From: Planctomycetota bacterium
GTDB taxonomy: Bacteria > Planctomycetota > JAZDJP01
Length of the DNA stretch: 64,000 bases
Reading direction: 5' to 3'
Assembly: GCA_043803805.1 (NCBI GenBank)
Contig: JAZDJP010000084.1
Location: forward strand, 121,462-185,461
The notes beneath the pieces were generated by a model, which was given only the letters and a program-made list of their open reading frames with translations, made no database searches and was not told where the DNA came from. This document shows positions 1,410 through 60,473 of this stretch, in pieces (within the stretch, counting starts at the first letter, position 1; every line of letters begins with the position of its first letter). A program made the position numbers and the translations under genes.

Positions 1410-1494
1410 CCCGTTCATGGTGAGCATTCCTTCGATAAACTCAGGATGAGCGGACTTCGATAAACCTGTCTGCCGGTAGGTTCAAGATGAGCGG
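1410..1494. repeat. Intergenic motif cluster A (CCCGTTCATGGTGAGCATTCCTT plus two TCARGATGAGCGG boxes)
   Basis: Exact 23-mer also found at 32235-32257 and, inverted with 2 mismatches, at 3490-3513. The companion box ctcaggatgagcgg/ttcaagatgagcgg recurs at 32320-32333. Confidence 0.55.
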
Positions 1495-3489: not shown

Positions 3490-3513
3490 AAGGGATGCTC
3501 ACCATGAACGGGA
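3490..3513. repeat. Intergenic motif copy B (inverted: AAGGGATGCTCACCATGAACGGGA)
   Basis: Reverse complement of the 23-mer with 2 mismatches (cat-t-cctt becomes cat-c-cctt), in the divergent promoter region between the membrane-protein and ligase genes. Confidence 0.5.
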
Positions 3514-23314: not shown

Positions 23315-23321
23315 GAGGAAT

Positions 23322-23679
23322 TATGCGACTTGGCATGGTTGTTGTGTGTGTGTGTGTGGCAGGATGTATGAGTCAAAAATATAGCATCATAGTTAGAAAT
23401 ACGGGCAGCGAGAAAATCACTCATGCCAGCGTGAATTATAATGATTTCAAGTCCGGAGGAGGCAATTTGCTTCCGGGGGGAGGAGCACAGCACGCATGGC
23501 CCGACGAGCCCATCCCTGAGAAAGCGAAAGTGGTGTGGCGTGACGCGAAGGGGGTGGATCACGAGAAGGATGTGGAGGTGAAGAAGAACATTCCGAAGAA
23601 CATCCGCGGGGACAAGGACCTCATATTCGAAATTGGCGATAACGACGATGTCACGATGAAAGTGAAGGCGGTGAAGTAG
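23322..23679 (+). CDS. Small periplasmic lipoprotein; candidate cognate immunity protein for the Rhs lipase tip
   Basis: MRLGMVVVCVCVAGCMSQ... has a lipobox (VAGC). 119 aa, low G+C like the toxin tip, and starts 8 bp after the Rhs stop. Tle immunity proteins are typically periplasmic lipoproteins. The immunity role is inferred from position only. Confidence 0.5.
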
Positions 23680-24052: not shown

Positions 24053-27000
24053 GTGCCTGTGAGCAACGCGTCGCGTCAACAGGTGGTCGTCGAGGCAGTT
24101 CGTCAATGGCAGACCCGGTTGTTGCAACTTGACCGGCGAAACGCGCTCCTCTACTTCTCGATGGGGAGGCGCGGGATAACACTTCGGAACATCGAACCAA
24201 ACGTTCTTCTCGAACGGCTCGCAACGTCACGCTCGGGGCTCGCGTTCACGTACGCGGAGCAAACCCGCGCGAGCGGTGGCGATCACTTCGACATCCCCGC
24301 AGCGTCCGACGATGCGGAGCTTGAGCCGCAAGTGCGCGTACGCCCCGGTGACCTCGACACGGATCTCGCGCCTCTTGAACTTCAGAAGAGGCTTGGCGCA
24401 CTCAACAGGAGGAGTCGGGAATGGCAGGAGGAGCAAGGACTCAACGTCTTGTTTATCGCGCTCGGTTTCCTGCGCTGGGTGGACGAGGATCAGGAACCGG
24501 CATGTTCGCCGATCCTCCTCGTTTCGTGTGAACTGAAACATGAGTCACCTCGTGATCCATACGCGCTCGTGGGGGAAGATTCTGATGACGCCGTCGTGAA
24601 CCCCACGCTCCGCCACAAACTCACTACGGCGGCAAATATCATCCTTCCCGAGATCGGCGAAGAAACGGTTGCGGAGTACTTGGCCGCGGTCTCGCGTCTC
24701 ATCGCGGGCCGTGAGGGCTGGTCCGTAGAAACAACCATCGTGGTTGCGACTTTTCCTTTCTCTAAACTCGCGATGTGGCAAGATCTCGATCAGATGGCCT
24801 CGACCGGTGTCACTCATCCTCTTGTCTGCCGCCTCGCAGGCGATGCAGATGTGCCCATCGAGGAATCGGAGAGCGGAGCAGTCGCAATCCCGAAGGACGA
24901 TATCCGGCTTCAGGGAGCGAAACTTGATGATCTGCTCGATGTCCGCGATCAACACGCCGTTGTGGATGCCGACTTCAGTCAACTTCGGGCGATCACGCTT
25001 GCGCGGTCGGGGAAGAATCTCGTGATCCATGGTCCACCGGGAACGGGGAAGAGCCAGACAATCGCCAACATTATTGCCACGCTTATCGCCGAGGGGCGTC
25101 GTGTGCTTTTTGTGAGCGAAAAGACGGCGGCGCTTGACGTCGTCAAGCGGCGACTCGCGGACGTCGGACTCGGTGCGTTCTGCCTTGATCTTCATAGTGA
25201 TCGCGGCAAGAAGGCCTCGGTGTATGCACAATTGCGCGAAGCACGGGATCAGCCTTTGGCCGCCGATGCGGATGTGTTTCCCTATGAGCGGTTACTCGCG
25301 CGACGTCACGAACTGAACACTACCGTGAGAGCGCTTCATGAAGTTCGCCAGCCACTCGGCTTGTCTGTTTTTACCGTGCATGGGCGCGTGGCCGCGATTC
25401 GCGAGGTGCCACAAGTAAATGTCCTTGTTCGTGACGTTGCCACCCTCGACGAAGATCGCCTGCGCCGCATCCAAGATGCCGCGCGTAGGATCGCTCGCCG
25501 CATATTGGAGTTTTGCGATCACCACACGAGCCGATGGCGTGCGCTCGGCGCCGTTGCCCCTTCCCCACGCCTAGCGGATGCCATACGTGGTGATCTCATG
25601 GCCATAAGTTCGGCGATCGACTCCATCGTGCGGGTGCTTGCGCGCGCGTCCGCGGCCTGTGGCGTCGATGCGCCGACAACGCTGGTTGAGGCGGAAAATC
25701 TACTGCGTCTGCTCAGTCACCTCATGAATGCTCCGGGATCGGTTCCTGCGCAATGGATCGAGTCCGAGGGGCTGGGACGTGCGCGAGATAGTGGGGACGC
25801 ATTGCGGCAAGAGCTCGCAGATCGGAAAAGATATCTTGATACTCTCTCATCGTCAATCAGCGGCGCACCTCCGGGACTACGAAGCCTCGATTGGCTTGAC
25901 ATCGCGCACGCTGTTGCGGCTGAGGCCACGCGTTGGGCCAGGGTAGCCGGTTCCGAATGGGATACAGTCTTGCTCGCGAACCCCCGGATTTGTGCGACGA
26001 AGTGGAATGACATTTCAACATCACTTGACGCGCATCTCGAAGCGTCGATCCACCTGCAAGTAATGCTAGGTGTTACGCAGCCCAATGATTCGCGCGCGGC
26101 CGCGGAATCAGCTGTGAGCGTTGCCACCCGACTACTACGGATAGGCAAGGTTCCCGTCACGTGGAACAGTTTGGAAGCAACCACCGGAATTTGCTCGGTG
26201 GTCACTGCCGCGCACAAACTTCGCGATGAACTTGTGGCGATGAGGCGAACGCTCGGGAGCCTTTTCGGCCCCGAGATCGTTGAGTGCGTTGACGACAAGA
26301 TGCTCGTTCGATTCCGGACCGACCATCAGTCGTTCTGGCGATGGTTGCGACCGGCGTATCGGCATGACTACAGGATGATCCGAGGTTGTCTCAAACAGCC
26401 CGTGAAGTTATCGCTGGACGCTTGCGTCAAGGCGATCGAGCAATCGTTGGCCGTCCGAAAACTTCGTTCGCGTTGGGCGGAAACGGAGCATCAGCTCCAA
26501 GTTGTTCTCGGTGACCGATTCGCCGGCCTTGAGTCAGATTGGACAGGCATCGAATCCGATCTTGTTGCCGTTGCGGACATCTACCGCGAGTTCCCTGCAC
26601 AGACGGTTGCGATTCGCTCAATTCTCGTGGATGCTCCGACGCTCGCGCTCCTCAACGATGCAATTCGCGCGGTGAAAGAACGCGCAACGGTTCTGGATAC
26701 CATCTGGCCGGAAGGCCTTTCCCATCGAGACGCCCATATTCCGGATATGTCATCTGACGCGCGAGCGTTCGCCAACACTTCGGGAAGGATTGGCGACATC
26801 GTTGATGCTCTCGGTCCCTTTGTGCGGCCTTTGGTCAATCTCGATGGCCTCATCAAGTTGCTGAAGGTCTGCGTGCAACTACAGAAACTCGAAGAGCATG
26901 CCGCTGCGGTTTTTGAAACGCGCTCTCGCGAGATCGGCACACTCTTTTCCGGATGGTCAACGGACTTCGACATATTCAACCGCACGATCGCCTGGACTCA

Positions 27001-29695
27001 AGAGATCGTTGCGCTGATGCGGTGTCCTTTGCCTGAAGGGTTGGTGGATCGCGCAACACGATCGCGTCCGTCGGCAACATACGAAGTTGAGATACGTGCG
27101 GTCATTGAGGCAATTAATCTGTTACGCTCCACCTGTTCTGCCTCGACCTCCATGTTCCCTGAGGCGCAGTGTCCCTGGAAATCCTGGGGACAAGCACCGT
27201 TTGCTGTCGCGCGGGCATGGTGCGATGATCTTTGCGCGCACGCTGACGAGGCCAGCGATTGGGTGGAGTACCGGTCCGCAGTCGAAGATTTGAATAATGA
27301 GATCGGTGCGGAAATGGCTGATGCTCTACGAGCAGCCACGGACGACGGGGAAATGGTTCCCGATATCGTGCTTCGCCACGTGTATATTTCCTGGCTTGAA
27401 TACATCTACCAGGAAGTGCGTGAACTCCGATTCTCGCCGAAAGACTTGGAGGGCACCGTAAAAAAAGAGTTCAGAGAACTCGATGCGCGTCTCCCGCGAG
27501 CGGCGCGCGAACGCGTCCGGGCGAAATGTCTCGCGGCGTATCCCTCGGATCGATCGAACTCGAACGGCATGGGTGAACTCGGAGTGTTGGGCCATGAACT
27601 CTCGAAGCGAAAACGCCTGATGCCCGTTCGCAAGTTGGTGGCAAGGATTCCCAACTTGCTCCAACGGTTGAAACCCTGTTTTATGATGAGTCCATTGGCC
27701 GTGAGTCAGTACCTGCCGCGTGGCGTCACTGACTCCGACACCTTGGTCTTCGACGCGGTAATCTTCGACGAGGCTTCGCAGATCTTTCCGGAAGATGCGA
27801 TTCCCGCGATCGCGCGTGGTCGCCAGTGTATCGTCGTCGGCGACCAGCAACAACTTCCCCCTTCCAGTTTCTTCCGGAGCGAAGATGTAGTGGATGAAGA
27901 TGGCGAAGCGACGACGGACAATCGTTTGCTCGATGTCGAGAGCATCCTCGACGTTCTGGTCGGGATGCGCGGGGCTGGTGTGGACGATGTCCATTTGCAG
28001 GTGCATTACCGGAGTCAGCATGACGACCTGATTCGGTATTCGAACCACTACTTTTACGACGACCGACTGCTGACATTCCCCTCCGCTTTGGGCACTTGTA
28101 AAGGCTTGGGGATTCGATCCGTCTATTTACCAGAGGGACGTTTCGAAGCCGGTGGAAGCAGGACGAACCGGGTGGAGGCGGAACAGGTCGTTCGCATCGT
28201 ATTCGAGTTGATGGAAACGCAACCCCCGATCGAGAGCATCGGTGTCGTTGCGTTGTCGCGGCCGCAGGCGGACCTCATCCAGGAGTTGATCGATCAGTAT
28301 CGGTTGTCGGACCGGCGATTCGACGAACGGTTTTCCGATGAGATGCACGAACGTTTCTTCGTGAAGAACTTGGAGAACGTTCAGGGGGATGAACGAGATC
28401 ATGTTATCTTGAGCATTGGGTACGGTCCGACAACGGCCTCGGGCGCTGTGCCCAATCGGTTCGGTCCAATCAACGTTGAGGGTGGACATCGGCGTCTGAA
28501 CGTGGCTGTGAGCCGCGCTAGGAGAAGTATCACGGTTGTGCACTCGCTTCGCCCGGAAGACATTCACTCCGAGGTGGAGGGGGCCAGGTTGCTTCGCCGC
28601 TACCTTGAGTTCCTTAGAAGCGGCGAGGCGTCAATTGAAGGCGTTGTGAATTCATCACCCGGCGGTGAAGCCGAGAGCCCGTTCGAGGATGCCGTGGGTC
28701 GCGCGTTGGAGCGATTGGGATATCGCATCGCACGCCAAGTGGGATGCGCGAAGTACTCGATCGATATCGCGGTCAAATCCGAGGACGGGAGCGGGTTCGA
28801 CCTTGCGATCGAGTGCGATGGCGCCGCCTATCACAGATCACCGAGTGCGCGAGATCGTGACCGGTTGCGTCAGGAGATTCTTGAACGCATGGGATGGCAG
28901 GGGCGAATTCATCGTGTCTGGTCGACGGCATGGATTCGAAACCCGAAAGCAGAACTTGCTGCGATTGAACATGCCATACGTGAAGCGCGTTCCGCACCAC
29001 GCGGGGGGCATACGTCAGCAAGCCTTCGCTTTGAAGTGCCGCCGAAGACACAGACTGCGACGCGTCAGGAAGGACATATCACCCCCAATCCATCTTCCGC
29101 GATGCCAGCGATAGAACGCCCACTGCTCGCAACCTATGTGAAAGTGGATCTGGATTGCTTCGCTAACGTCACCGATTTGAGACAGGTGCCTTCGTCACGA
29201 GTTGCGGATATGATTGATGTTGTCGTGAAAGTGGAGGGTCCCGTCCACGTCGATATAGTAGTCGAACGCATTCGGCGCCACTATCGGTTCGGTCGTGCAG
29301 GACGGCTCGTTCGAGACGCGGTACTGGCGGGATTGAAGGTGGCGCTTCGACGCGGAACCGTTCTGTGGTTGCCTCTGCTGGTCTCCAACAAGCAAAGGAG
29401 TGACTTCCTCGTCGTGGCCGCGGATCTGGAGATTGTGCCCCGCGGCCCCTTGCAGGATGGGACAGTGCGAGATATTGACCATCTCTGTGATGATGAGATC
29501 GAGGTTGCCGTGGTGCGTGTCGTGCGTGCGATGGTTGGCGCGACGAAGAACGAGGTGGTCACAACAACAGCTCGCGCGTTAGGCTATGCTCGAATTAGCG
29601 ACCACATCGAAAAACGTATATGCAAGTCAGTCGACCGGCTAATTGAGACGCGGAAACTTGTCGAACGGGTAGGTTCCTTGGTGTTGTGTGATTGA
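24053..29695 (+). CDS. 1880-aa DUF4011 / SF1 (Upf1-like AAA_11+AAA_12) helicase / Vsr-DUF559-like endonuclease / DUF3320 protein; Hhe-like candidate antiphage defence protein
   Basis: GTG start with the GGAGG-containing stretch gacggagg 7 bp upstream. DUF4011 hallmark LLQLDRRNALLYF. Walker A LVIHGPPGTGKSQTIAN. Walker B/motif III VIFDEASQ...CIVVGDQQQLPP. Motif IV HYRSQ, motif V NVQGDERDHVILSIGYG, motif VI LNVAVSRAR. Nuclease block YSIDIAVKSEDGSGFDLAIECDGAAYHRSPSARDRDRLRQEILERMGWQGRIHRVWSTAW. DUF3320-like tail. G+C is lower than the flanks. Confidence 0.8.
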   Translation: MPVSNASRQQVVVEAVRQWQTRLLQLDRRNALLYFSMGRRGITLRNIEPNVLLERLATSRSGLAFTYAEQTRASGGDHFDIPAASDDAELEPQVRVRPGDLDTDLAPLELQKRLGALNRRSREWQEEQGLNVLFIALGFLRWVDEDQEPACSPILLVSCELKHESPRDPYALVGEDSDDAVVNPTLRHKLTTAANIILPEIGEETVAEYLAAVSRLIAGREGWSVETTIVVATFPFSKLAMWQDLDQMASTGVTHPLVCRLAGDADVPIEESESGAVAIPKDDIRLQGAKLDDLLDVRDQHAVVDADFSQLRAITLARSGKNLVIHGPPGTGKSQTIANIIATLIAEGRRVLFVSEKTAALDVVKRRLADVGLGAFCLDLHSDRGKKASVYAQLREARDQPLAADADVFPYERLLARRHELNTTVRALHEVRQPLGLSVFTVHGRVAAIREVPQVNVLVRDVATLDEDRLRRIQDAARRIARRILEFCDHHTSRWRALGAVAPSPRLADAIRGDLMAISSAIDSIVRVLARASAACGVDAPTTLVEAENLLRLLSHLMNAPGSVPAQWIESEGLGRARDSGDALRQELADRKRYLDTLSSSISGAPPGLRSLDWLDIAHAVAAEATRWARVAGSEWDTVLLANPRICATKWNDISTSLDAHLEASIHLQVMLGVTQPNDSRAAAESAVSVATRLLRIGKVPVTWNSLEATTGICSVVTAAHKLRDELVAMRRTLGSLFGPEIVECVDDKMLVRFRTDHQSFWRWLRPAYRHDYRMIRGCLKQPVKLSLDACVKAIEQSLAVRKLRSRWAETEHQLQVVLGDRFAGLESDWTGIESDLVAVADIYREFPAQTVAIRSILVDAPTLALLNDAIRAVKERATVLDTIWPEGLSHRDAHIPDMSSDARAFANTSGRIGDIVDALGPFVRPLVNLDGLIKLLKVCVQLQKLEEHAAAVFETRSREIGTLFSGWSTDFDIFNRTIAWTQEIVALMRCPLPEGLVDRATRSRPSATYEVEIRAVIEAINLLRSTCSASTSMFPEAQCPWKSWGQAPFAVARAWCDDLCAHADEASDWVEYRSAVEDLNNEIGAEMADALRAATDDGEMVPDIVLRHVYISWLEYIYQEVRELRFSPKDLEGTVKKEFRELDARLPRAARERVRAKCLAAYPSDRSNSNGMGELGVLGHELSKRKRLMPVRKLVARIPNLLQRLKPCFMMSPLAVSQYLPRGVTDSDTLVFDAVIFDEASQIFPEDAIPAIARGRQCIVVGDQQQLPPSSFFRSEDVVDEDGEATTDNRLLDVESILDVLVGMRGAGVDDVHLQVHYRSQHDDLIRYSNHYFYDDRLLTFPSALGTCKGLGIRSVYLPEGRFEAGGSRTNRVEAEQVVRIVFELMETQPPIESIGVVALSRPQADLIQELIDQYRLSDRRFDERFSDEMHERFFVKNLENVQGDERDHVILSIGYGPTTASGAVPNRFGPINVEGGHRRLNVAVSRARRSITVVHSLRPEDIHSEVEGARLLRRYLEFLRSGEASIEGVVNSSPGGEAESPFEDAVGRALERLGYRIARQVGCAKYSIDIAVKSEDGSGFDLAIECDGAAYHRSPSARDRDRLRQEILERMGWQGRIHRVWSTAWIRNPKAELAAIEHAIREARSAPRGGHTSASLRFEVPPKTQTATRQEGHITPNPSSAMPAIERPLLATYVKVDLDCFANVTDLRQVPSSRVADMIDVVVKVEGPVHVDIVVERIRRHYRFGRAGRLVRDAVLAGLKVALRRGTVLWLPLLVSNKQRSDFLVVAADLEIVPRGPLQDGTVRDIDHLCDDEIEVAVVRVVRAMVGATKNEVVTTTARALGYARISDHIEKRICKSVDRLIETRKLVERVGSLVLCD

Positions 29696-29729
29696 GTTCA
29701 TGGAAGTAAACGGGCTCAAATTGTAATTT

Positions 29730-29820
29730 GACGGAACGGAATCATGGCTTATCCCACCGTCGAACCGGATTGCATCCGGGGCCTCGCGCGCCGCGTGGCG
29801 GAAATCGCCGCGGAACCGCG
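29730..29820 (+). repeat. Direct repeat copy 1 of the URO-D-like gene leader plus first ~27 codons (~88% identical to 32358-32458)
   Basis: aacggaacggaatcATGGCTTATCCC...TGCATCCGGGGCCTCGCG(C/T)GCCGCGTGGCGGAAATCGCCGCGGAACCGCG is shared. Both copies encode MAYP...CIRGLA(R/C)RVAEIAAEPR. Confidence 0.7.
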
Positions 29821-29839
29821 CTCGATGGACGCTGGGGCG

Positions 29840-32173
29840 ATGAAGATGGGTCGGATTGCTTTCCGGGGCGCGTTGGCGCTGGCCTTCACGGTTTTTCTGG
29901 CCTTGCCCGCGCGCGCGGCCGAGCCGGACACGGCCGGCGACGCCGGCGGCTGGCGGCCGGTGGGCATCTCCGGGGGCGGCTCGATGTTCGGGCCGGCCAT
30001 CAGCCCGGTTGACCCCAGGCTCATGATCATCAATTGCGACATGAGCGGCGCCTACCGCTCGGCCGACGGCGGCCGGAACTGGCGGATGATCCACCACGCC
30101 CAGTTGGGCGGGAACACCTTCTGCCGCCCGGCGTTTCATCCCACGGAAGCCCGGACCGTCTTCGCCGCCTCCGGCTGGTCGGGAAATCTCAAGGTCAGTC
30201 GCGACGCCGGCGTGACGTGGGCGGACATCGGCAACCTCCCGGCCGGCCTCAAGGGCGAAATCGCCATTGACCCCGGGGAGCCCAAGATGATGCTCGCCGG
30301 CGTCAGGGATGAGGTCTGGCGCTCGGCCGACGGGGGCCTCACCTGGGCCAGGTGCGCCGGGCCCAAGGGCGCGGCGGCCGGCTTCCACTTCGACCAGACC
30401 AGCCCCTCCGGGCGGCGCCGGTGCTTCGCGGCCACCGCCGAGGGCGTCTGGCGCTCGGACGACGGCGGCGCGAACTGGGCGGAGAAGTCGGCGGGCCTGC
30501 CCTGGCGGGGGATGCGCAGTTTCGCGGGAGGGTCGAGCGCGGCCGGGAATGTCTGCGCGCTCTACGGTGCGGTGCCCAGCAGGGAGCAGGACGGCAAATT
30601 CGCCGGCGGCGTCTTCCGTTCGACCGACGGCGGCGAGATCTGGGAGTCGGCCATGGGCGAGGGGATCAACAAGGACGTCCGCGCCGCCGACCCGTGGGCC
30701 ATGGGCGGCATCGCCGAGTACCGCTGGGTGCTGGCCACGGACGCGAAGCCGCTCACGGTCTACGCGCTCAACACAAACACCGGCGTGAAGCCGCCGCACC
30801 ACGCCACGGTCTACCGCTCCGACGACGGCGGGCGGACCTGGCGCGCCACATTCACGCCCGACCAGCGCTTCGGGGGCCTCAACGTCGAGCTCGACTGGCG
30901 CACGGCCGGCGCCGGGCAGTTCTACCAGGAGGTCCCCTTCGGCGCGGCGGTCTGCCCGTCGGATCCCGACCGGGTGGTCTTCTGCGGCTCGATGGGATGC
31001 TACCTCACCGAGGACGGTGGAAAGAGCTGGCGGTCGGGCCACACCGCGCGCGCCGCCGGCGACGCCGGCAAGGGGCCGGACTCCCGCTGGCTCTGCAACG
31101 GTCTGGTGGTCACCTCGACGTGGCATTACTACGCCGATCCCTTCGAGCCGCGGAGGCGCTACATCGCCTACACCGACATCGGCTTCGCGCGCTCGACGGA
31201 CGCGGGCGCGAGCTGGATGTGGTGGGGGCCGGGCCGCTGGGCGCCCTGGCAGAACACCTGCTACGAGCTCGCCTTCGATCCGGAGACCAGGGGCCGCGTC
31301 TGGGGCGCCTTCTCGAACGTCCACGACATCCCCAACGACAACGTCATCTCCGGCCGGCACAAGGCGGACCGCCCGGGAGGCGTCTGCTTGAGCGCCGATT
31401 TCGGCACGATCTGGAAACCCTGCGGAACGGGGCAGCCCGCCGCGCCGGCCACCGCGGTGGTCCTCGACCCCGGGAGCCGCGCCGGCGCGCGGACGCTCTA
31501 CGCGGCCTTCTTCGACCAGGGCGTATACAAGTCGGTGGACGACGGCGCGACCTGGACGAAGGCCGGCAAGGGGCTGGGCGCCCCCGGGAACATGCGCGTT
31601 TGCCGGCTGCATCGGCACCCCGACGGGACGCTCTTCGCGCTGGTCACCGCCAAGCGCGAGGGCAAGCGCTTCATCCCGGAGGGGCCGGGGCTCTACCGCT
31701 CGACGGACGGCGCGGCGATCTGGGAGCCGGCGGGCGCCTCGCGGCCGCTCCTCTGGCCCAAGGACTTCGCCGTCAACCCGCGCGACAGCCGGACCATCTA
31801 CGTGGCCGCGGCCGACGCGGGGGCGGAGAAGCAGGGCGGGCTCTACCGCACCTCTGACGGGGGAAAAACCTGGACGCTCCTGGCCCGCAAGGGGCCGGAG
31901 CACTTCGGCGTGGCGCTCCATCCCCGCCGGCCGGGCTGGATCTACATGACTCTCTGCGAGGGCGCGCCGGGATCGGGCCTGTGGCTCAGCCGCGACGACG
32001 GCGCCAGCTGGGCGCCCTTCGATGATCTGCCCTTCAGGAACATCCAGAGGGTGGAGTTCGTCCCGGGCGAGGAGTCCGTCATCTACGTGACCACCTTCGG
32101 CGGCAGCGTCTGGCGCGGGCCGGAGGAGCCGCGCGGGGGCGGAACCGTGGGGGGTGTGAACGGTGAATTGTAA
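29840..32173 (+). CDS. Secreted BNR/Asp-box repeat protein (sialidase/VPS10-like beta-propeller fold)
   Basis: Signal peptide MKMGRIAFRGALALAFTVFLALPARAAEP, then about eleven SxDxGxTW-type Asp-box repeats (SRDAGVTW, SADGGLTW, SDDGGANW, STDGGEIW, SDDGGRTW, TEDGGKSW...). The track ORF 29744..32173 adds a 32-aa N-terminal extension that is a duplicated leader of the downstream gene. Confidence 0.65.
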   Translation: MKMGRIAFRGALALAFTVFLALPARAAEPDTAGDAGGWRPVGISGGGSMFGPAISPVDPRLMIINCDMSGAYRSADGGRNWRMIHHAQLGGNTFCRPAFHPTEARTVFAASGWSGNLKVSRDAGVTWADIGNLPAGLKGEIAIDPGEPKMMLAGVRDEVWRSADGGLTWARCAGPKGAAAGFHFDQTSPSGRRRCFAATAEGVWRSDDGGANWAEKSAGLPWRGMRSFAGGSSAAGNVCALYGAVPSREQDGKFAGGVFRSTDGGEIWESAMGEGINKDVRAADPWAMGGIAEYRWVLATDAKPLTVYALNTNTGVKPPHHATVYRSDDGGRTWRATFTPDQRFGGLNVELDWRTAGAGQFYQEVPFGAAVCPSDPDRVVFCGSMGCYLTEDGGKSWRSGHTARAAGDAGKGPDSRWLCNGLVVTSTWHYYADPFEPRRRYIAYTDIGFARSTDAGASWMWWGPGRWAPWQNTCYELAFDPETRGRVWGAFSNVHDIPNDNVISGRHKADRPGGVCLSADFGTIWKPCGTGQPAAPATAVVLDPGSRAGARTLYAAFFDQGVYKSVDDGATWTKAGKGLGAPGNMRVCRLHRHPDGTLFALVTAKREGKRFIPEGPGLYRSTDGAAIWEPAGASRPLLWPKDFAVNPRDSRTIYVAAADAGAEKQGGLYRTSDGGKTWTLLARKGPEHFGVALHPRRPGWIYMTLCEGAPGSGLWLSRDDGASWAPFDDLPFRNIQRVEFVPGEESVIYVTTFGGSVWRGPEEPRGGGTVGGVNGEL

Positions 32174-32210
32174 TTTAGAGCAATTCACGATTAACGGAAT
32201 CCTCAGTGCC

Positions 32211-32333
32211 GCTCATGGTGAGCCCTTATGAATACCCGTTCATGGTGAGCATTCCTTTAAATTACAATAATTGTCGAACCACGAACCATGAGCAGAGCAC
32301 GGGCTCATCCTTCGACAGGCTCAGGATGAGCGG
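32211..32333. repeat. Intergenic motif cluster C (half-copy GCTCATGGTGAGCCCTT, full 23-mer, AATTGTAATTT boxes, TCAGGATGAGCGG box)
   Basis: Same elements as cluster A, located between the BNR gene and the URO-D-like gene. Confidence 0.55.
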
Positions 32334-32357
32334 TTTTATCAATTCGTGAACTGCTCT

Positions 32358-32458
32358 AACGGAACGGAATCATGGCTTATCCCGCCGGAGAACTGGAGTG
32401 CATCCGGGGCCTCGCGTGCCGCGTGGCGGAAATCGCCGCGGAACCGCGGATGACGGCG
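32358..32458 (+). repeat. Direct repeat copy 2 (native 5' end of the URO-D-like gene)
   Basis: See copy 1. Confidence 0.7.
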
Positions 32459-33595
32459 ATTCTCGCCCGCTGGCGCGACGTGAGCGCCCTTCGCAAACCC
32501 GACCGCGCCCCCGTCTGGTGCAAACCCGTCGGCTGCTGGTCCGAAATCCTTCCGACGTCGTCGCTTGTGTGCCGGGATCCCGGGTTGCGGGATATCGAGT
32601 TGGAACTTCGGAAAATCGTGTTCAAGCGCGAGGTGGACGATGATACGCCGGTACCTCCATACATCGAGGCGCCGGCGGTGTTTCAGGTCACGCCCAGGAA
32701 CATTTACGGCCTTGAGATCAATCACACGCCGTCCGATTCGCCCGGGGGCGCCTGGGCGTACGATCCGCCGCTGAAAAGCGAAGCGGATTTCGATCGTCTC
32801 GTCCTGCCGGAATACCATTACGACGCGGCCGCGACGCGGGCCAACCGCGACCGGATGCGGGAGATTCTCGGGGGCGTCCTTCCTGTGAAAGTGGCCGTGA
32901 ACGTGTCCTGGGAAGGGACGCTGGGGACCGCCGCGGCCAATCTGCGGGGGCTCGAGACGATGATGCTCGACACCCTGGATCATCCGGATTGGCTGCATCG
33001 GCTCATGGCGGTCGTCCGGGACGCCGCGCTACGCCATCTGGATTGCGCCGAAGCGACGGGGGTGCTGCGCACGAACGCGTACGACCCGATGATGGGGAGC
33101 GGCCCGGTCGGCGCCATTCCGCCTGGAGGCCGGCCGACGTGCGCCAACCTCTGGTGCATGGCCAATTCGCAGGAGTTTGATCAGGTGTCGCCCGCCGCGT
33201 GGCAGGAGTTCTGCCTCGAGTACCAGAAGCCGATTCTCCGGCGCTTTGGATTCACGGGATATGGGTGCTGTGAGAATCTGACGCGAAAACTGGATGGCGT
33301 GCTCACCATTCCCAACCTTCGCATCGTGACCTGCGGCGCCTGGACGAATCTGGACACGGTCATCGAAAAAACGAACCGCCGGTATTGCATCATGTGGCGG
33401 CAAAAGGCGTCCGACGTGGTTTTTGCCAGGCGGGAGGATGAGATCCGAGGGCCCCTGGAGGACGGCGCCCGGCGTCTGCGGGGATGTTATTACCAGATCG
33501 TCCTTCGCGAACTTCAGACGATGGCCGGCCATTCCGACCGGCTCCACGTCTGGACGCGGTTGGCGAAGGAGGCGGCGGAGAAATACGCATCGTGA
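32372..33595 (+). CDS. Uroporphyrinogen decarboxylase (URO-D)-like family protein
   Basis: 407-aa cytoplasmic protein whose overall pattern resembles the URO-D/MtaA-like family common in PVC genomes. Its first ~27 codons are duplicated upstream of the BNR gene. Confidence 0.35.
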   Translation: MAYPAGELECIRGLACRVAEIAAEPRMTAILARWRDVSALRKPDRAPVWCKPVGCWSEILPTSSLVCRDPGLRDIELELRKIVFKREVDDDTPVPPYIEAPAVFQVTPRNIYGLEINHTPSDSPGGAWAYDPPLKSEADFDRLVLPEYHYDAAATRANRDRMREILGGVLPVKVAVNVSWEGTLGTAAANLRGLETMMLDTLDHPDWLHRLMAVVRDAALRHLDCAEATGVLRTNAYDPMMGSGPVGAIPPGGRPTCANLWCMANSQEFDQVSPAAWQEFCLEYQKPILRRFGFTGYGCCENLTRKLDGVLTIPNLRIVTCGAWTNLDTVIEKTNRRYCIMWRQKASDVVFARREDEIRGPLEDGARRLRGCYYQIVLRELQTMAGHSDRLHVWTRLAKEAAEKYAS

Positions 33596-33615: not shown

Positions 33616-33644
33616 TTGAAATTCCTGCTTGCGTGTGCTATTAT
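33616..33644 (+). promoter_or_regulatory. Near-consensus sigma70-type promoter (TTGAAA-17 bp-TATTAT)
   Basis: ttgaaa (33616-33621), a 17-bp spacer, then tattat (33639-33644), about 150 nt upstream of the ATG at 33802. The TTG of the -35 box is what the ORF track used as a spurious start for ORF 33616..36477. Confidence 0.4.
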
Positions 33645-33801
33645 GCGACTAAGTGGGTGTGCGTGGCGGAAACGGAATGCCGGACGAGGATGGGAGGTTC
33701 GTGTGGATGTCTTGTATTCTCCGGTGACCGATGTACGATTCCCGATGGTTCGCCGGCCAACGGTCAACGGAAACGCATTTCGTGAGAGGATGCCTTTTCC
33801 C

Positions 33802-36477
33802 ATGAAGAAAGAAACGCGCATCACCGGCATCGTTCTGGCGGCCCTGTATTACGCCGTCATGTTCCCGAGCCCCGCCCATGCCGTGGTGCCGGTCCTTGTG
33901 GGACCTCTCCAGGCGTTGATGGCGCTGCTCCCGGCCATTCTCGCGGCGCTGGGGGGGATGCTCCTGGCCGTGTTCAAGCCGTCCGCCATGAAAAAGTTCC
34001 TTCAGCTCCTCTGGGCCCAGAAACTCCAGGTCCTGGCCACGGTGGCCGTCATTGCCGGGTTGGTATACGGGTGCCAGGCGCTCTTCCCCGGCTGGAGCGG
34101 GCCGGTGAAGGAACTGGAGAAGGCCGATCGCGAATCACCCATGTTCCGCGGCGGGCCGGAACGGCGGGGCGTGGCCGACAACATGCCCGGGCCCGTCGAG
34201 AGCAGCATCAACTGGGCCTTCACCAAGGACGTCCGGACGTTTTATTCCACCCCCTCCGTGGTCGGGAACCGGGTATACGCCACTTCCGCGGACAAGGGGC
34301 CGTTCCGGGACAGCGGGGCGGTGTACTGCCTGGACGCGGATACGGGAAACGTCGTGTGGAAGGTGTCTCCGAAGGGGTTCCGGGCCACGTTCTCCTCCCC
34401 GGCGGTATCGGGTAAATATCTGGTCTGCGGGGAGGGGCTTCATTTCACCCGGGATGCCCGCGTCTTCTGCCTGGACATCAGCGATGAGAAGAATGTCAAG
34501 ATCCTTTGGGATTACCGCACCAAGAGTCATGTGGAATCTTCCCCCTGCATCGCGGACGGGCGCGTTTACGTCGGGGCCGGAGATGACGGATATTATTGCT
34601 TCGACCTCGCTCCCGGGCCGGACGGCCAGGCGAAGGTTCTCTGGCATACGGATACGGCCAAGGTTCCCGACGCCGAGACCTGTCCGGCGGTGGCGGGCGG
34701 AAAGGTGTATGTGGGGCTCGGGGTGGGGGGCAACGGCGTGGCGTGTCTGGACGCGGCCACCGGCGCCGTGGCGTGGAAGGCGGCGACGCCCTATCCCGTG
34801 TTTGGCCCGCCGACCGTGGTGGGCGGAAAGGTCATCGTGGGGATGGGGCTGGCGAATTTCATCGAATCCGAGGAGCAGGTCATCCTCAAGGAGACGGAGA
34901 AGTTGAAGAAGAAGGGACTGCCCGAGGCCGAACTGAAGGCGGCCCTGAAGGAGTTCAAGGTCACCGGAGAAGTGTGGGCGCTGGACGCGGCCACGGGGAA
35001 TCCGGTCTGGAAATTCACGGCCCCCCGGAGCGTCCTGGGCGCGGTGGCGGCGGCGAATGACAAGTTGTTCTTCGGTTGTAATGACGGGTCGTTCTTCCGG
35101 CTGAACATGGATGGGAAGAAGGAACTCGCGTGGAACGCCCGCGCGCCCGTCCTCACGTGTCCGGCCGTCACGGATGACAACGTATATATCGTGACGACGA
35201 CGGGGAAACTCTACGGGTTGTCCGCCGACACGTTCGAACTGGTCCTGGAACACACGGTTGGCACGACGGGGTTGTTCCTGAGTTCGCCCACGGTCGGACG
35301 GAGCCACGTGTATGTCGGTTCCAGCGATTTCGGCCTGCAGTGCCTGGGGCTTCCCAGCGGCGTCCGGAAGGAGCCGGTGTGGGCCGGGCACATGGGCGGC
35401 GCGGGGGGCGCGGGATGGATTGATGGAAGTCCCCTCCCGGCCAGTGGCGTTCTGGCCGGCCGGTACCCCGAGGCCCCGGAAGGCGAAGAGACGGCTCCGG
35501 CCGCGGTCATCTCCGCGCCGTCGGCCGCCTCCAGGGACATGCTCTTCGTTCCCGTGGCGGACGGCGCCCGGAAGGGTCTCGCCGGCCTTGCCACCGGGAA
35601 AAAACTCGCCGAGAAGTGGTTCGTGGCGACGCCCAACGGCGTTTCGATATCCCCGGCGGCCGGGGGCGACCGCGTATACGTCACGGACGGCGGGAACGGC
35701 GACGGCAATCGGAATCTCCAGTGTCTGGATGCCGCGACCGGGAACGTCAAATGGAAGATTCCGGTGGCTCCGGGGGTGTCCGGCGCTTTCCTCCTGGCGG
35801 AGGACGTCGTTCTGGTGCAGGACAAGCCGGGCGTCCTGGTCGCGGTGGATGTCTCGGGGCAGGCGGCCTGGCGGCGGACCGTCGGGGAGATGATCGGCAC
35901 CGCGGCCGTCGCGGAGACGGTCATCGCGGTGGCGGTGAAGGATCCGCCGTCTCTGGCGCTTCTGGATCGCGTGACGGGCCGCGAACTCTGGCGCGTTCCG
36001 GTGGAGGCGGGTGTGACGACGGGGCCGGTCGTCCGCCCGGATAATGTCATTTGTGTCGGGACGAAGGCCGGCGTCGAGGCGCGGAATCCCGCCGACGGCG
36101 CGAAGGCCTGGACGGCCGATGTCGGGGCGGTGTCCGGGACGCTGGCGACCGCGCGGAACTTCATCGCCGGCGCCTGCCCGGGAACGTCGGACATCGCGAT
36201 CCTCGACGGAAACGGGAATATCCTCACCCGTCTCGCGGAGGCCCTGCCGGGGATGCCGCCGGTGATGGCCCGCGACGCCCTCCTGTATTTTTCCACAACG
36301 AAGGAGATCCGGCGGGTGGAGCTGGAAAAATGGAATCCTCTGATCTGGACGAAGACGGACTTCCTCGGCGAGGTCACGTCGCCGGCGGTCCTGGTGAATT
36401 CGCAGGTGTATTTCGGCGTCCGCCGTCAGGAGGATGGGAAAATCGGTCTCGTGGTCGAAAAGGGGAAAAAGCAATGA
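33802..36477 (+). CDS. Membrane-anchored protein with multiple PQQ-like beta-propeller repeats (BamB-like)
   Basis: MKKETRITGIVLAALYYAVMFPSPAHA plus a second hydrophobic segment, followed by many repeats of the G..VY.....G.....LDA.TG...W type characteristic of PQQ beta-propellers. About 890 aa. Confidence 0.6.
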   Translation: MKKETRITGIVLAALYYAVMFPSPAHAVVPVLVGPLQALMALLPAILAALGGMLLAVFKPSAMKKFLQLLWAQKLQVLATVAVIAGLVYGCQALFPGWSGPVKELEKADRESPMFRGGPERRGVADNMPGPVESSINWAFTKDVRTFYSTPSVVGNRVYATSADKGPFRDSGAVYCLDADTGNVVWKVSPKGFRATFSSPAVSGKYLVCGEGLHFTRDARVFCLDISDEKNVKILWDYRTKSHVESSPCIADGRVYVGAGDDGYYCFDLAPGPDGQAKVLWHTDTAKVPDAETCPAVAGGKVYVGLGVGGNGVACLDAATGAVAWKAATPYPVFGPPTVVGGKVIVGMGLANFIESEEQVILKETEKLKKKGLPEAELKAALKEFKVTGEVWALDAATGNPVWKFTAPRSVLGAVAAANDKLFFGCNDGSFFRLNMDGKKELAWNARAPVLTCPAVTDDNVYIVTTTGKLYGLSADTFELVLEHTVGTTGLFLSSPTVGRSHVYVGSSDFGLQCLGLPSGVRKEPVWAGHMGGAGGAGWIDGSPLPASGVLAGRYPEAPEGEETAPAAVISAPSAASRDMLFVPVADGARKGLAGLATGKKLAEKWFVATPNGVSISPAAGGDRVYVTDGGNGDGNRNLQCLDAATGNVKWKIPVAPGVSGAFLLAEDVVLVQDKPGVLVAVDVSGQAAWRRTVGEMIGTAAVAETVIAVAVKDPPSLALLDRVTGRELWRVPVEAGVTTGPVVRPDNVICVGTKAGVEARNPADGAKAWTADVGAVSGTLATARNFIAGACPGTSDIAILDGNGNILTRLAEALPGMPPVMARDALLYFSTTKEIRRVELEKWNPLIWTKTDFLGEVTSPAVLVNSQVYFGVRRQEDGKIGLVVEKGKKQ

Positions 36478-39290
36478 AGCGCTGGATTTATTTTTTCGGG
36501 GACGGCGCGCCGGAGATCGATTCCGGGCGGAAGGATATCCTGGGCGGGAAGGGCGCGAGCCTCGTCGAGATGAGCCACGCGGGCCTTCCGGTGCCGCCCG
36601 GGTTCATCATCTCCACCGAGGCCTGCCAGGCTTATTTCGAGGGCGGGAATCTCTGGCCGGAGGGGCTTGAGGCGGAGGTGAGGACGAATCTCGCGCGCCT
36701 GGAGAAGGTTACGGGCCAGCGCTTTGGGAGCGGGAAACAGCCGCTCTTTGTGTCCGTGCGTTCCGGCGCCGCGGTGTCCATGCCGGGCATGATGGACACG
36801 ATTCTCAATTGCGGCGTCTATCCCCGGATATGGTGCCCGGGGGCCGGCACGTGCGCCACCCACCCCTGCGCGATCCTCAACTGCGGCATCTATCCCAAGC
36901 TTGTGGAGGAGGTCGGCGACACGCCGATTTTCTGGAGGGTCTATCTCCAGTTCGTGGCGCAATTCGCAAAAACCGTTCACGAGATTCCCTCGGAATCGTT
37001 CATGCGACACGGAAGCGCGAAACCGGAGGATTTTTCGTTCGCCTCCGCCCAGCGCGCCCTTCGTCTCTACCGGGACAAGACGCGGTCGGATTTCCCCGAG
37101 GAGCCGTGGGCGGCGCTTGCCGCGTGCATCAACGCCGTCTTCAATTCCTGGAACAACGAACGGGCCATCGCCTACCGCAAGCGGAACGACATCCGGAAAC
37201 TCTTCGGAACGGCGGTCACGGTGCAGTCCATGTTCCCGTCGCACCTTTCGGGGATTCTTTTCACGCAGGATCCGAACAACCTGGCCGCCAACCGCATGAT
37301 CATCGAGGCCTCCTACGGCCTTGGGGAGGCGGTCGTTTCCGGCGATGTCACGCCGGACCGTTTTGTCGTGCCGCGCGACAATCCGGCCGTTTACGAGACG
37401 GTGCTGGGGAACAAAAACGCGCTCGTCCGGGCCTTTGGCGACGAGGACCCCGTGGATCCGGCGGTCCCGTGCCTTTCGAAGGAACAGGTTGCCCAGCTCT
37501 GCGAGGCCGGACTCAAAATCGAAAAACATTTCGGCCGGCCGCAGGACATCGAGTGGGGATTCGCGAGGGGGAAATTCGCGCTTCTCCAGTGCCGGTCCAT
37601 ACGCGGCCTGGATATTCTGGAGGACGTGGAGCGTGGACGGAAGGCGGAGATCGAACGCCTGACGGCTCTGGCGAAGGACCGCGCCCGCGTCTGGGTGACT
37701 CACAACCTCGGCGAGACCCTGCGGGTGCCCACGCCGCTCACCTGGGACATTGTGAAACACTTCATGAGCGGGGACGGCGGTTTCGGCCTCATGTACCGGC
37801 AGTTGGGGTACCTCCCATCCAGGGAAGTGTGTCGGGACGGGTTCCTCGATCTCGTGAACGGGCGCATTTACGCCGATCCGGAACGCCTTTCCCAGTTGTT
37901 CTGGGAGGGGATGCCGATGGCATACGACCTCGATGCGGTGCTCAAGGACAAAAATCTGCTCGATCAGGCGCCGTCGCGGTTTGACGCCGAACGGGCCGAC
38001 GGAAAGTTCCTGGCCAAACTGCCCAAGACGGTGATCGCCATGCTCCGGAGTTCCCGGATCACCAAGCGGATGCGGAGGAACGCGAAGGAATATTTTGAGA
38101 ATGAGGTTCTCCCCACGTATCTGGCCTACGTGAAAGCGAAGCGCGGGCAGGACCTGACGAAGAGGACCACCGCCGAAGTCGTGGCGGAACTTCGGGAACG
38201 GACGCGGAAGGCGCTGGATGAATTCGGCCCGGAGTCCCTCAAGCCCGGCTTTTTCGCCGGGGTGGCGTACGGCGCCGTCGAGGGGACGCTCATCGAGATC
38301 CTGGGCCCGGAGGAGGGTGGGGCTCTCGCGCGGACGCTCACGATGGGGCTCGATGGCGACACCACCGTTGAACAGAATCTGATCCTTTACCGGGTGGCGA
38401 AGGGGGACGCGACGATTTCCGAATTTCTGGAGCGGTTCGGCCACCGCGCGGTGGGGGAGATGGAACTTGCCGAATCGCGCTGGCGCGAGGATTCCACGTA
38501 CATCGAGCAGATGGTGGCCACCTTCAAGACCATCACGGGACGTTCCCCGCACGACATCCATGAGGAGAACTCCGTCAAGCGCGCCGTCGCCGAAAAATCG
38601 CTCCGTGAAGCGCTGACCCGGGGCGGGGGGGCGGCGCTTCTCGAGGATATTCAGGCGAATCTCAAGGACGCCCAGGCGCTCCTTCCGTATCGCGAAAGCG
38701 GCAAGCATTATCTCATGATGGGATACGAGGTCATCCGTCTCGCCATCCTGGAGTTGTCGCGGCGGTGGGACCTCGGCCGGGACGTTTTCTTCCTGCGCCT
38801 CGACGAGCTGGACCGTTACGAGGCCGAGAAGGCCCGTTTGTCGGGCGAGATCGCGGCGCGCAAGCTCCGGTGGCAGTCCGCCCAGCGTCTCGAGATGCCC
38901 GACGTCATCGACTCGCGAAATCTGGAAAAACTCGGTCTCCCCCAGGAGTACGCCTCGGCGACGGAATTCAAGGGGGATGCCGTGGCCTCCGGTGTCGGCG
39001 TCGGCCCGGCGGCCATCGTCTTCGACCCGCGGGAGGCGGGGGACATCGGGACGGGATATATTCTGGTTTGTCCCTCGACCGACCCCGGATGGACGGCCCT
39101 GTTCATCAACGCGCGGGGGTTGATTGTGGAACGCGGCGGGATCCTTTCCCATGGCGCCATCGTCGCCCGCGACTTCGGCATTCCCGCGGTGGTCCTGCCG
39201 GGGGCCACGAGCCGCATTCCGAAGAAGGCGCAGATCCGGGTGGATGGGAACCGCGGGAGTGTCACGGTGCTTGACGTGAAGCAATCCTAG
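36474..39290 (+). CDS. PEP-utilizing phosphotransferase (PPDK_N ATP-grasp plus C-terminal phosphohistidine swivel domain; PEP synthase / rifampicin-phosphotransferase-like architecture)
   Basis: Start ATG overlaps the upstream stop (ATGA). N-terminus GGKGASLVEMSHAGLPVPPGFIISTEA matches the PPDK N-terminal motif. C-terminus VLVCPSTDPGWTALFINARGLIVERGGILSHGAIVARDFGIPAVV matches the PEP-utilizers mobile domain with the catalytic His. The track ORF 36051..39290 is over-extended. Confidence 0.7.
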   Translation: MKRWIYFFGDGAPEIDSGRKDILGGKGASLVEMSHAGLPVPPGFIISTEACQAYFEGGNLWPEGLEAEVRTNLARLEKVTGQRFGSGKQPLFVSVRSGAAVSMPGMMDTILNCGVYPRIWCPGAGTCATHPCAILNCGIYPKLVEEVGDTPIFWRVYLQFVAQFAKTVHEIPSESFMRHGSAKPEDFSFASAQRALRLYRDKTRSDFPEEPWAALAACINAVFNSWNNERAIAYRKRNDIRKLFGTAVTVQSMFPSHLSGILFTQDPNNLAANRMIIEASYGLGEAVVSGDVTPDRFVVPRDNPAVYETVLGNKNALVRAFGDEDPVDPAVPCLSKEQVAQLCEAGLKIEKHFGRPQDIEWGFARGKFALLQCRSIRGLDILEDVERGRKAEIERLTALAKDRARVWVTHNLGETLRVPTPLTWDIVKHFMSGDGGFGLMYRQLGYLPSREVCRDGFLDLVNGRIYADPERLSQLFWEGMPMAYDLDAVLKDKNLLDQAPSRFDAERADGKFLAKLPKTVIAMLRSSRITKRMRRNAKEYFENEVLPTYLAYVKAKRGQDLTKRTTAEVVAELRERTRKALDEFGPESLKPGFFAGVAYGAVEGTLIEILGPEEGGALARTLTMGLDGDTTVEQNLILYRVAKGDATISEFLERFGHRAVGEMELAESRWREDSTYIEQMVATFKTITGRSPHDIHEENSVKRAVAEKSLREALTRGGGAALLEDIQANLKDAQALLPYRESGKHYLMMGYEVIRLAILELSRRWDLGRDVFFLRLDELDRYEAEKARLSGEIAARKLRWQSAQRLEMPDVIDSRNLEKLGLPQEYASATEFKGDAVASGVGVGPAAIVFDPREAGDIGTGYILVCPSTDPGWTALFINARGLIVERGGILSHGAIVARDFGIPAVVLPGATSRIPKKAQIRVDGNRGSVTVLDVKQS

Positions 39291-57725: not shown

Positions 57726-57860
57726 ACTCTTGGTTGCGAAATCTTGTGAGAAACGGCAAGGAAATATCCGTTTGCGAAGTGATAAAACCGCTCATCGAGC
57801 GGCATTGAGGGTTCGACCTGTTTGATTCCGGCTCTGCCGGGTTGGGATCGGGCCGGGGAA

Positions 57861-59762: not shown

Positions 59763-59942
59763 CGGGGCGGCCGCCTTGATTATACCTCATCGCCCGTGCC
59801 ATGCCAAGAAAGTGATATGCAGTTCAGGGATTTTCGACCCCGGCGCGGCCGTCGGCGCGGTTGGGGACGGCACAATAATCCGGGGGGATGTCTTACACCC
59901 GAAACATATCCCAGCGGACAAGTAAGAAATCATGTCGTCGCA

Positions 59943-60473
59943 ATGAGTGTGGTATGGTTAATAACGGGATTGGCGTGTGGGATGACCATTGTCGTTTCAG
60001 GGATTAATTCGTCGCCACGTAAAGTGTTTGAACGGTTGGTAAGCGAATTAGCGGTCAAGAATGTTGTGGTTGAGGAAGTGTACGGGATGAAAACCATCAG
60101 ATGGGCCGAGTGGTACTTACGGTTTAAAAGTGATGACGGAGATTCGTTGAAGAAGATGCAAGAGCATGGGTATGTTGAATGGGGTTATCCCGATTACGTC
60201 AAAGCGATGAGACAATCTAGAATGTTGGGGAAGAAGTTACTCTCGGAAGGTGCTTGTAGTCAGATATATGCAAAAGCGTTCGGATACGATGGAAAATTTA
60301 TTGTGAGAGGCGTGAACGGTGAATTGATGTTCTACAACATATACGGTTCCCTGAATGAGTTGCCGATACCGGAGGGAAAGCCTATCCCGCCTTGCGGGCC
60401 GAGCGGAACGGACGGTGCCATCACAACAACACCCGCCTCCCGTGACAACGCTCCCGCAGGGGAGGGGAAGTGA
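59943..60473 (+). CDS. Small membrane-anchored hypothetical protein (low G+C)
   Basis: MSVVWLITGLACGMTIVVSGINSS signal anchor. 176 aa. Base composition is clearly AT-richer than the surroundings. Confidence 0.45.
   Translation: MSVVWLITGLACGMTIVVSGINSSPRKVFERLVSELAVKNVVVEEVYGMKTIRWAEWYLRFKSDDGDSLKKMQEHGYVEWGYPDYVKAMRQSRMLGKKLLSEGACSQIYAKAFGYDGKFIVRGVNGELMFYNIYGSLNELPIPEGKPIPPCGPSGTDGAITTTPASRDNAPAGEGK

Follow-up and report, generated by a model that had tools for sequence, protein, structure and literature searches.

In the 64,000-nt stretch of a Planctomycetota contig (JAZDJP010000084.1) analysed here, called the window, a gene for a BNR-repeat protein is found just upstream of a gene for a protein of predicted URO-D fold, and the beginning of the URO-D-like gene is present a second time in front of the BNR gene. 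The BNR gene is of foreign origin, and the repeated sequence on its two sides suggested that it was inserted into the start of the URO-D-like gene. The features of the locus are given below on the coordinates of the window, with GC3 standing for the GC content of third codon positions.

29719–29820, plus strand: left copy of the direct repeat, a URO-D-like stub made of AATTGTAATTT, one base, ACGGAACGGAATC, the ATG at 29744 and the next 25 codons; 95/102 positions agree with the right copy once the element at 32177–32357 is removed
29744–32173, plus strand: BNR open reading frame (ORF) as publicly annotated, 809 aa (P0121, V1809_09730), consisting of stub, linker, foreign gene and a 10-aa tail
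29821–29839, plus strand: ragged left junction, 19 nt, CTCGATGGACGCTGGGGCG
29840–32142, plus strand: horizontally acquired core of the BNR gene, from its most likely native ATG (Met33; signal peptide MKMGRIAFRGALALAFTVFLALPARA) to the end of homology, delimited by Pfam matches, homologue starts, DNA identity and GC3
32143–32165, plus strand: right-junction filler, 23 nt, AACCGTGGGGGGTGTGAACGGTG, without similarity to L001 and L002, the loci of the two closest BNR homologues
32166–32176, plus strand: first part of the right repeat copy, AATTGTAATTT, which holds the TAA (32171–32173) that now ends the BNR ORF
32177–32357, no strand assigned: palindromic element of 181 bp in the right repeat copy, resembling a miniature inverted-repeat transposable element (MITE) and recognised by terminal inverted repeats, flanking TA and the collinearity of the repeat on excision
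32358–32448, plus strand: second part of the right repeat copy, the leader and first 26 codons of the intact URO-D-like gene
32372–33595, plus strand: resident 407-aa URO-D-fold gene (P0001, V1809_09735)

The core of the direct repeat, as delimited by repeat finding, spans 90 nt (29731–29820 against 32359–32448), with 84 of 90 positions (93%) identical and a spacing of 2628 nt, and it was supported by blastn-short (E = 3.5e-33) and by a MAFFT alignment. It is the sole long direct repeat of the window and has exactly two copies. Each copy of the core comprises a leader of 13 nt, ACGGAACGGAATC, followed by the ATG and the 25 codons after it, the last of which (codon 26) is Arg in both (CGC and CGG). 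A first-pass annotation of the window, made from the sequence, had proposed a direct repeat of about 100 bp at this place, and the alignment of the two copies that it had called for agreed with this. The identity of about 88% given there was too low, and the right end at 32458 was about 10 nt too far, the repeat ending at 32448. The description as 14 nt plus about 27 codons was correct in naming a leader and an N-terminus; the measured extent is 13 nt and 26 codons in the core, and 25 nt before the ATG when the adjoining box is counted. When the 181 bp at 32177–32357 were taken out of the right copy, the repeat became 102 nt long with 95/102 identical positions, pairing 29719–29820 with 32166–32176 plus 32358–32448, and was found to contain 25 nt 5' of the ATG and the first 26 codons of the URO-D-like gene. 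The seven mismatches between the copies are at 29730, 29756, 29760, 29761, 29766, 29770 and 29789, and those in the coding part fall at positions that are variable in the family.

The box AATTGTAATTT is present exactly at 29719–29729 and 32166–32176 and with 10 of 11 matches on the minus strand at 32259–32269, and a fourth copy with one mismatch lies inside a gene at 56424. These four occurrences at no more than one mismatch compare with 0.35 expected in the window, and none of 100 shuffles reached four. The three positions around the BNR gene, and a GAATTG...CAATTC palindrome around its stop (32165–32186), had been reported in the first-pass annotation and were both seen in the sequence. The boxes had further been regarded as separate elements repeated at both ends of the gene, and this did not hold: the first two are the first 11 nt of the 102-nt repeat, split by an insertion, because removal of the 181 bp restores collinearity. 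The excision joins AATTGTAATTT to (A)ACGGAACGGAATCATG, where the left copy reads AATTGTAATTT(G)ACGGAACGGAATCATG. Since TA stands on both sides of the 181-bp element, three cuts (32176–32356, 32177–32357 and 32178–32358) are equivalent. Repeated boxes noticed beside a repeat can therefore be one repeat that was split by a later MITE insertion.

The spacer between the BNR stop and the ATG of the URO-D-like gene is 198 nt long and has a folding z of −3.5, none of 200 shuffles folding as well. The 181-bp element that makes up most of it contains no ORF and is bounded by terminal inverted repeats matching at 15 of 16 positions (TTAGAGCAATTCACGA at 32175–32190 and TCGTGAACTGCTCTAA at 32344–32359). 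Inside it are units similar to repetitive extragenic palindromic (REP) sequences, which recur at 1410–1453, 3490–3512 and 57775–57796; in the window only such sub-units recur, and the terminal repeat itself is found at this place only. Terminal inverted repeats and a candidate target duplication were thus both found, the latter being weak evidence as it consists of TA alone, and by its sequence the 181-bp piece is MITE-like in its behaviour. Correia elements of Neisseria and IS630/Tc1-type MITEs are TA-duplicating elements of 100–200 bp with terminal inverted repeats. The 181-bp element shares with these and with REP-like units the size, the terminal inverted repeats, the TA on both sides, the strong hairpin potential, an intergenic site near a gene start and the presence of related units elsewhere in the window. 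It differs from those MITEs in that the window holds no second full-length copy and in that TA is too short to prove duplication. REP-like palindromic units, for example CCCGTTCATGGTGAGCATTCCTT and CTCAGGATGAGCGG, were also noted more widely in the intergenic spacers of the window (1410–1494, 3490–3512, 32209–32333 and 57775–57796), CTCAGGATGAGCGG having five matches at up to two mismatches against 0.72 expected.

The nature of the two repeat copies was judged from the protein encoded by the URO-D-like gene. The same protein sequence has a database entry as a hypothetical protein from a Planctomycetota metagenome-assembled genome, and 845 homologues were found; of the best 120 listed, the majority have a length of about 405 aa, and most align from the first residues. 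Apart from this source protein, the closest homologue in a set of 5.8 billion proteins is 62% identical. The N-terminus is conserved, with E7, R12, L14, A15 and P25 invariant among 15 homologues. The protein gave no Pfam or NCBIfam match at E values up to 0.01, its family profile only grazed the solved URO-D chains of PDB (E = 0.023), and some homologues bear a precomputed PF01208 match, which is faint where its strength is given. The AlphaFold2 model (pLDDT 91.2, pTM 0.89) was compared with PDB by Foldseek, and the top 26 hits were URO-D or MtaA-type methyltransferases (best E = 1.2e-8, TM score 0.5–0.6, 10–15% identity). Going by this model, the 407-aa protein has the URO-D fold, which does not imply HemE orthology. 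Because, in the model, the 26 duplicated codons correspond to helix 1 and the first part of helix 2 of a globular enzyme, the left copy, which is cut in the middle of the hairpin, is a truncated stub of the URO-D-like gene, and the right copy is its true start.

The BNR protein scored above the Pfam gathering thresholds for Sortilin-Vps10 (82.1 bits, cut-off 33) and BNR (57.1 bits, cut-off 27) and is, on these matches, a predicted beta-propeller of the BNR/Asp-box, Sortilin-Vps10 type; its gene contains eight repeats bearing Asp boxes, grouped as repeat family D1. An assignment to the F510_1955 family of glycosylhydrolases (NCBIfam NF045728) was rejected, the score of 144.9 bits being below the curated cut-off of 175. 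The gene has a GC content of 0.72 and a GC3 of 0.93, against a GC3 of 0.72–0.84 for host genes of the window. When GC3 was followed along the ORF, it was 0.78 in codons 1–32 (stub and linker), 0.91–0.95 in codons 33–797 and 0.67 in the last 12 codons, the URO-D-like gene having 0.78–0.79. The rise falls exactly at the ATG at 29840, and there is another sharp step at about 32142. By a binomial test, the stub would have a donor-like composition with P = 0.006, and codons 33–132 a host-like composition with P = 0.0005.

The closest homologues of the BNR protein are 81% and 73% identical at the protein level. At the DNA level the gene is 85.5% identical over 29941–32141 (2.2 kb) to L001, on a JGI metagenome contig, and 78.6% identical to L002, on an ENA contig. 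The gene is compositionally at home in these loci, because all genes there but one have a GC3 of 0.88–0.99, with about 0.95 typical of L001. The gene neighbourhoods of these two homologues, and of three URO-D-like homologues at four loci, were unrelated to that of the window; none contained the helicase, and at none did a BNR gene stand beside a URO-D-like gene. By the GC3 steps and the DNA identity to L001 the insert is foreign to its flanks, while the repeats on either side derive from the target, the right copy being the URO-D-like start and the left copy having 95/102 identity and host-like GC3. The core of the BNR gene was horizontally acquired from a much GC-richer lineage.

The boundaries of the acquired DNA were placed by comparison with its homologues. 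Read from the ATG at 29744, the ORF carries the 32-aa extension MAYPTVEPDCIRGLARRVAEIAAEPRSMDAGA ahead of MKMGRIAF..., and the first-pass annotation had accordingly described an extension beginning with MAYP before the BNR signal peptide; both the ORF and the public 809-aa record read in this way. In an alignment of 11 BNR homologues, none carries an extension like the 32 aa of the stub, and 10 of the 11 start at the column of Met33, the eleventh being annotated with a longer N-terminus. Because these 10 begin at Met33, the extension is attributed to the stub of the neighbouring gene, and the native start of the BNR gene is most likely the ATG at 29840. The public annotation is thereby corrected: the 809-aa protein most likely starts at Met33. 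A signal peptide follows this residue, with K/R residues, a hydrophobic core at residues 38–52 of the annotated ORF and an ARA/AE cleavage motif.

The similarity to L001 begins at GCGATGAAGA, which is common to the window and the start of the L001 gene. The L001 start is preceded by GGAGG (−10.2 kcal/mol against the anti-Shine-Dalgarno sequence), whereas the window has unrelated sequence there (−4.7). At the 3' side, the similarity to L001 and L002 ends at about 32142, a few bases before their stop codons; past this point the BNR ORF crosses the 23-nt filler and then meets the TAA within AATTGTAATTT of the right copy. The native ribosome-binding site and stop codon of the BNR gene were not transferred. 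Because homology starts at about the ATG and ends short of the stop codon, the foreign piece is a near-bare ORF without a ribosome-binding site or stop of its own. The left junction is possibly a decayed continuation of the repeat, CGCTGGGGCGA resembling CGCTGGCGCGA of the URO-D-like gene at 32468–32478 with a score that 31 of 2000 shuffles reached; if this is the case, the left joint may fall on GCGA, which is shared with the donor-type BNR start. Across the right junction, the 15-mer GTGAACGGTGAATTG (32156–32170) is identical to 60312–60326 (blastn-short E = 0.011), in a low-GC ORF at 59796–60473 (GC 0.50, no Pfam match), and both copies read VNGEL in the same frame with a Gly codon ahead. 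This match may be due to chance or may mark the source of the junction filler. As to expression, the BNR gene may be translated from 29744 as an in-frame fusion, from both ATGs, or weakly from 29840. With a start at 29744, cleavage of the signal peptide on export would be expected to remove the extra 32 aa in front of it as well, and the predicted mature N-terminus is AEPD... with either start.

The insert was also checked for features of mobile elements. An integrase or transposase domain was found in none of the scanned ORFs of the window and none lies between the repeats, where the BNR ORF is the only ORF. Among the 25 longest inverted-repeat pairs, none links the two ends of the insert (29821–32165). 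A transposon or insertion-sequence event was rejected on the duplication of 102 bp (not 2–14 bp), the lack of an inverted repeat joining the ends and the lack of a transposase domain. An integron cassette was rejected as well, the scanned ORFs having no integrase domain and the BNR ORF being followed by a repeat copy and the MITE-like element and not by an attC-type imperfect palindrome. A site-specific integrative element of the e14/icd type was likewise discarded, with only the BNR ORF between the repeats and no recombinase.

We consider it probable, at roughly 0.68, that the repeat is the scar of a horizontal insertion in which the BNR gene entered by illegitimate recombination and the target was duplicated, followed by the insertion of a MITE. 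A gene for a secreted BNR protein from a much GC-richer lineage would have been inserted within the first 26–36 codons of the URO-D-fold gene by an illegitimate, not a site-specific, event, and a target segment of 102 bp or more (25 nt 5' of the ATG and 26 codons) would have been duplicated in the process. The left copy would have persisted as a stub, fused to the incoming ORF and in frame with it, with the right copy heading the intact URO-D-like gene. The incoming DNA would have been trimmed to a few bases before its start codon and to just short of its stop, with loss of the Shine-Dalgarno sequence, and as a result the BNR ORF would have come to close at the TAA inside the right repeat copy. 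Later, the 181-bp MITE-like element would have entered a TA of the right copy and parted AATTGTAATTT from the remaining repeat. Candidate mechanisms are a staggered break with fill-in and end joining, or a template switch during replication. We infer this order of events, the union of insertion and duplication in a single event, the enzymology and the ATG in use from the present arrangement.

Several observations weigh against this reading. There is no close relative to show an empty site, the nearest URO-D-like protein being the one of 62% identity mentioned above, and the 22-mer GTGGCGGAAATCGCCGCGGAAC gave one match each in the genome and metagenome contig collections, both of them chance matches in FtsZ-like genes (VAEIAAEQ); the source genome is itself absent from the collections scanned. 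As the source is a metagenome-assembled genome, the junctions are known from the assembly alone. The target duplication of 102 bp is far longer than those made by transposases. Five of the seven mismatches are clustered within 15 nt (29756–29770; P = 0.018), and all six coding changes are nonsynonymous with none synonymous (T5A, V6G, P8L, D9E, R16C; P = 0.16 under neutrality), a pattern that fits poorly with simple neutral decay of identical copies. The cluster looks like one multi-base event more than gradual decay, which is possible but unproven. Finally, the inverted AATTGTAATTT-like box in the middle of the element (32259–32269; shuffle P = 0.004) has no explanation under this reading. When extended to 32251–32268, it is complementary to 32167–32184 at 16 of 18 positions and to 29720–29736 at 15 of 17, and it possibly reflects a target preference of the 181-bp element.

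The same final arrangement would also arise if a tandem duplication of the URO-D-like gene or its 5' region came first and foreign BNR DNA, joined illegitimately on both sides, then took the place of all but the first 26 codons of the upstream copy. Tandem duplications are common, and the ragged 19 nt after the left copy could be the decayed continuation of a longer copy. This course of events needs three events, however, where the insertion with target duplication needs one or two. The filler at 32143–32165 matches nothing downstream of the URO-D-like gene, from where a tandem joint is expected to originate. There is also no other URO-D-like remnant between the copies, the BNR core being continuous with its homologues from Met33 to the C-terminus, and we regard a tandem origin as unlikely. 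A little less likely still is the integration of a circular or linear intermediate, in which a 5' copy of the URO-D-like gene already lay beside the BNR gene, by a Campbell-type single crossover or by homology-facilitated illegitimate recombination with that copy as the anchor. Direct repeats of the homologous segment are the invariable outcome of a Campbell integration, and the cluster of five mismatches in 15 nt could reflect donor/recipient divergence on one side of the crossover. The stub is host-like, however (GC3 0.78 against 0.93 for the cargo), and comes with 25 nt of host non-coding sequence, so a GC-rich donor would not have carried it, and an earlier illegitimate event in this lineage would have been required to make the intermediate. 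Furthermore, two alleles that diverge under purifying selection would not be expected to differ without a single synonymous change, as the two copies do, and no recombinase is encoded in or near the insert. As one of two readings, the first-pass annotation had offered the BNR gene as an inserted cassette, arriving by recombination between copies of the leader. The insertion of a foreign gene stands, on the outlying GC3, the unrelated contexts of its relatives and the duplicated flank; the proposed route was not shown and is not the simplest.

A chimeric contig, in which the assembler joined a BNR gene from another organism into the host sequence at repeated k-mers, would suit a source that is a metagenome-assembled genome and an insert with the composition of a different organism. 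It is nevertheless highly improbable: the copies differ at seven positions, which means that distinct sequences were present in the reads, and the mis-assembly would have had to pass out of the host genome and back into it at the same 102 nt. Sequence common to the window and donor-like DNA amounts to only about 10 nt at the left joint and is absent at the right one, which is not enough for mis-joining at k-mers.

The first-pass annotation had also offered the repeat as a shared cis-regulatory leader or leader peptide used by both genes, that is, a 5' segment kept by selection as a regulatory RNA, a leader peptide or a common N-terminal module that co-regulates them. Both copies do keep the ATG, the 13-nt leader and residues E7, R12, L14, A15 and P25, and the BNR fusion is in frame in a gene without a Shine-Dalgarno sequence of its own. 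The search for RNA structure that had been suggested was negative: the 90-nt copies folded no better than shuffles (z = +1.17 and +1.19), their 132-nt contexts were unremarkable (z = −0.48 and −0.33), and an Rfam scan of 29000–33000 at E up to 1 gave no match in the repeat and one meaningless long non-coding RNA match inside the BNR gene. The leader is found before no other gene of the window (about 45 genes). The protein accounts for the conservation, since the segment forms helix 1 at the conserved N-terminus of a globular enzyme and the stub breaks off in the middle of a hairpin; BNR homologues have no such extension, and an in-frame join is a one-in-three chance. We therefore give selection on a shared leader very little credence, and the repeat is probably an insertion scar and not a functional shared leader. 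Capture of the neighbour's promoter, which had been proposed along with the recombination between leader copies, is doubtful, with only 25 nt 5' of the ATG duplicated, a stretch too short for a promoter, and no sigma-70-like promoter predicted in 29300–32700. The two terminator-like sites in that interval equal chance expectation, one of them being the REP-like hairpin at 32319–32331. Within the leader, the 9-mer AACGGAATC occurs seven times in the window against 1.65 expected (one of 100 shuffles reaches seven), at 4692, 8803, 29735, 32193, 32363, 44467 and 49821, and at its sites beyond the BNR/URO-D locus it does not precede start codons.

The insert is trimmed nearly to the ORF, starting 0–5 nt before the ATG and ending just short of the stop, and this could point to a dedicated capture route, independent of a recombinase, that places promoterless foreign ORFs behind resident translation starts, for example by integration of an mRNA-derived copy or by a template switch during replication. 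The prospect is a slim one; if such a route exists, further foreign ORFs joined to stubs in this way would be expected in this genome and in other genomes. By whichever route it arose, the locus is a clean example of an acquired gene that lacks its own ribosome-binding site and stop and sits behind a resident start, with the resident gene spared.

The insertion with target duplication was also compared with known systems. Homology-facilitated illegitimate recombination in Acinetobacter baylyi was reportedly described by de Vries and Wackernagel in 2002, and double illegitimate recombination in the same species is said to have been described by Hulter and Wackernagel in 2008. The present locus shares with illegitimate integration in A. 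baylyi foreign DNA that brings no recombinase, joints with little or no homology (a possible GCGA overlap at the left), filler at one joint (23 nt at the right) and a rearranged recipient site. Unlike there, a 102-bp target duplication flanks the insert, the target gene is intact, and the event is deduced from one sequence and not observed. A literature search on short-patch illegitimate recombination returned nothing relevant. Integrative elements such as e14 in icd of E. coli and the islands in tRNA genes carry a replacement end of their target gene. As at the BNR locus, a partial copy of a gene end lies at the far side, direct repeats flank the insert and the target gene remains intact; those elements, however, encode a site-specific recombinase and usually use the 3' ends of their targets, whereas here a single ORF without a recombinase is flanked by a duplicated 5' end and the stub has the composition of the host and not of the element. 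With integron gene cassettes the locus shares a single promoterless ORF behind resident expression signals, which suits the word cassette; unlike them, the repeats here are a piece of the neighbour's coding sequence, no integrase is encoded in the scanned ORFs and there is no attC-type palindrome. The locus resembles known scars of illegitimate integration, and nothing in it requires a new kind of system or points to a novel mobile system or regulatory element.

Upstream of the left repeat copy lies one further large gene.

24053–29695, plus strand: 1880-aa helicase-nuclease of defence type (Pfam DUF4011, AAA_11, AAA_12, MTES_1575 and DUF3320)

In PADLOC this protein scored 1222 bits with the candidate defence family PDC-S37 and 534 bits with Hhe. 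It was probably acquired likewise, because its GC3 of 0.62 is below that of host genes. The gene ends 23 nt before the left repeat copy, and before the insertion its end would have been 48 nt upstream of the URO-D-like start. Farther upstream, 13823–23314 encodes a 3163-aa RHS-repeat protein with a C-terminal phospholipase domain like Tle1 of type VI secretion systems, and GC falls to 0.48–0.55 over 22400–23600, as expected for a swapped toxin tip and immunity region. The BNR locus is at the edge of an accessory region, in which these upstream RHS/Tle1-type and helicase-nuclease genes are partly atypical in composition. On the other side of the URO-D-like gene, the ORFs listed at 33616–36477 (a PQQ/BamB-like beta-propeller) and 36051–39290 (a PEP-utilising enzyme) overlap by about 430 nt, and the gene for the PEP-utilising enzyme probably starts much later, near MKRWIYFFGDG.

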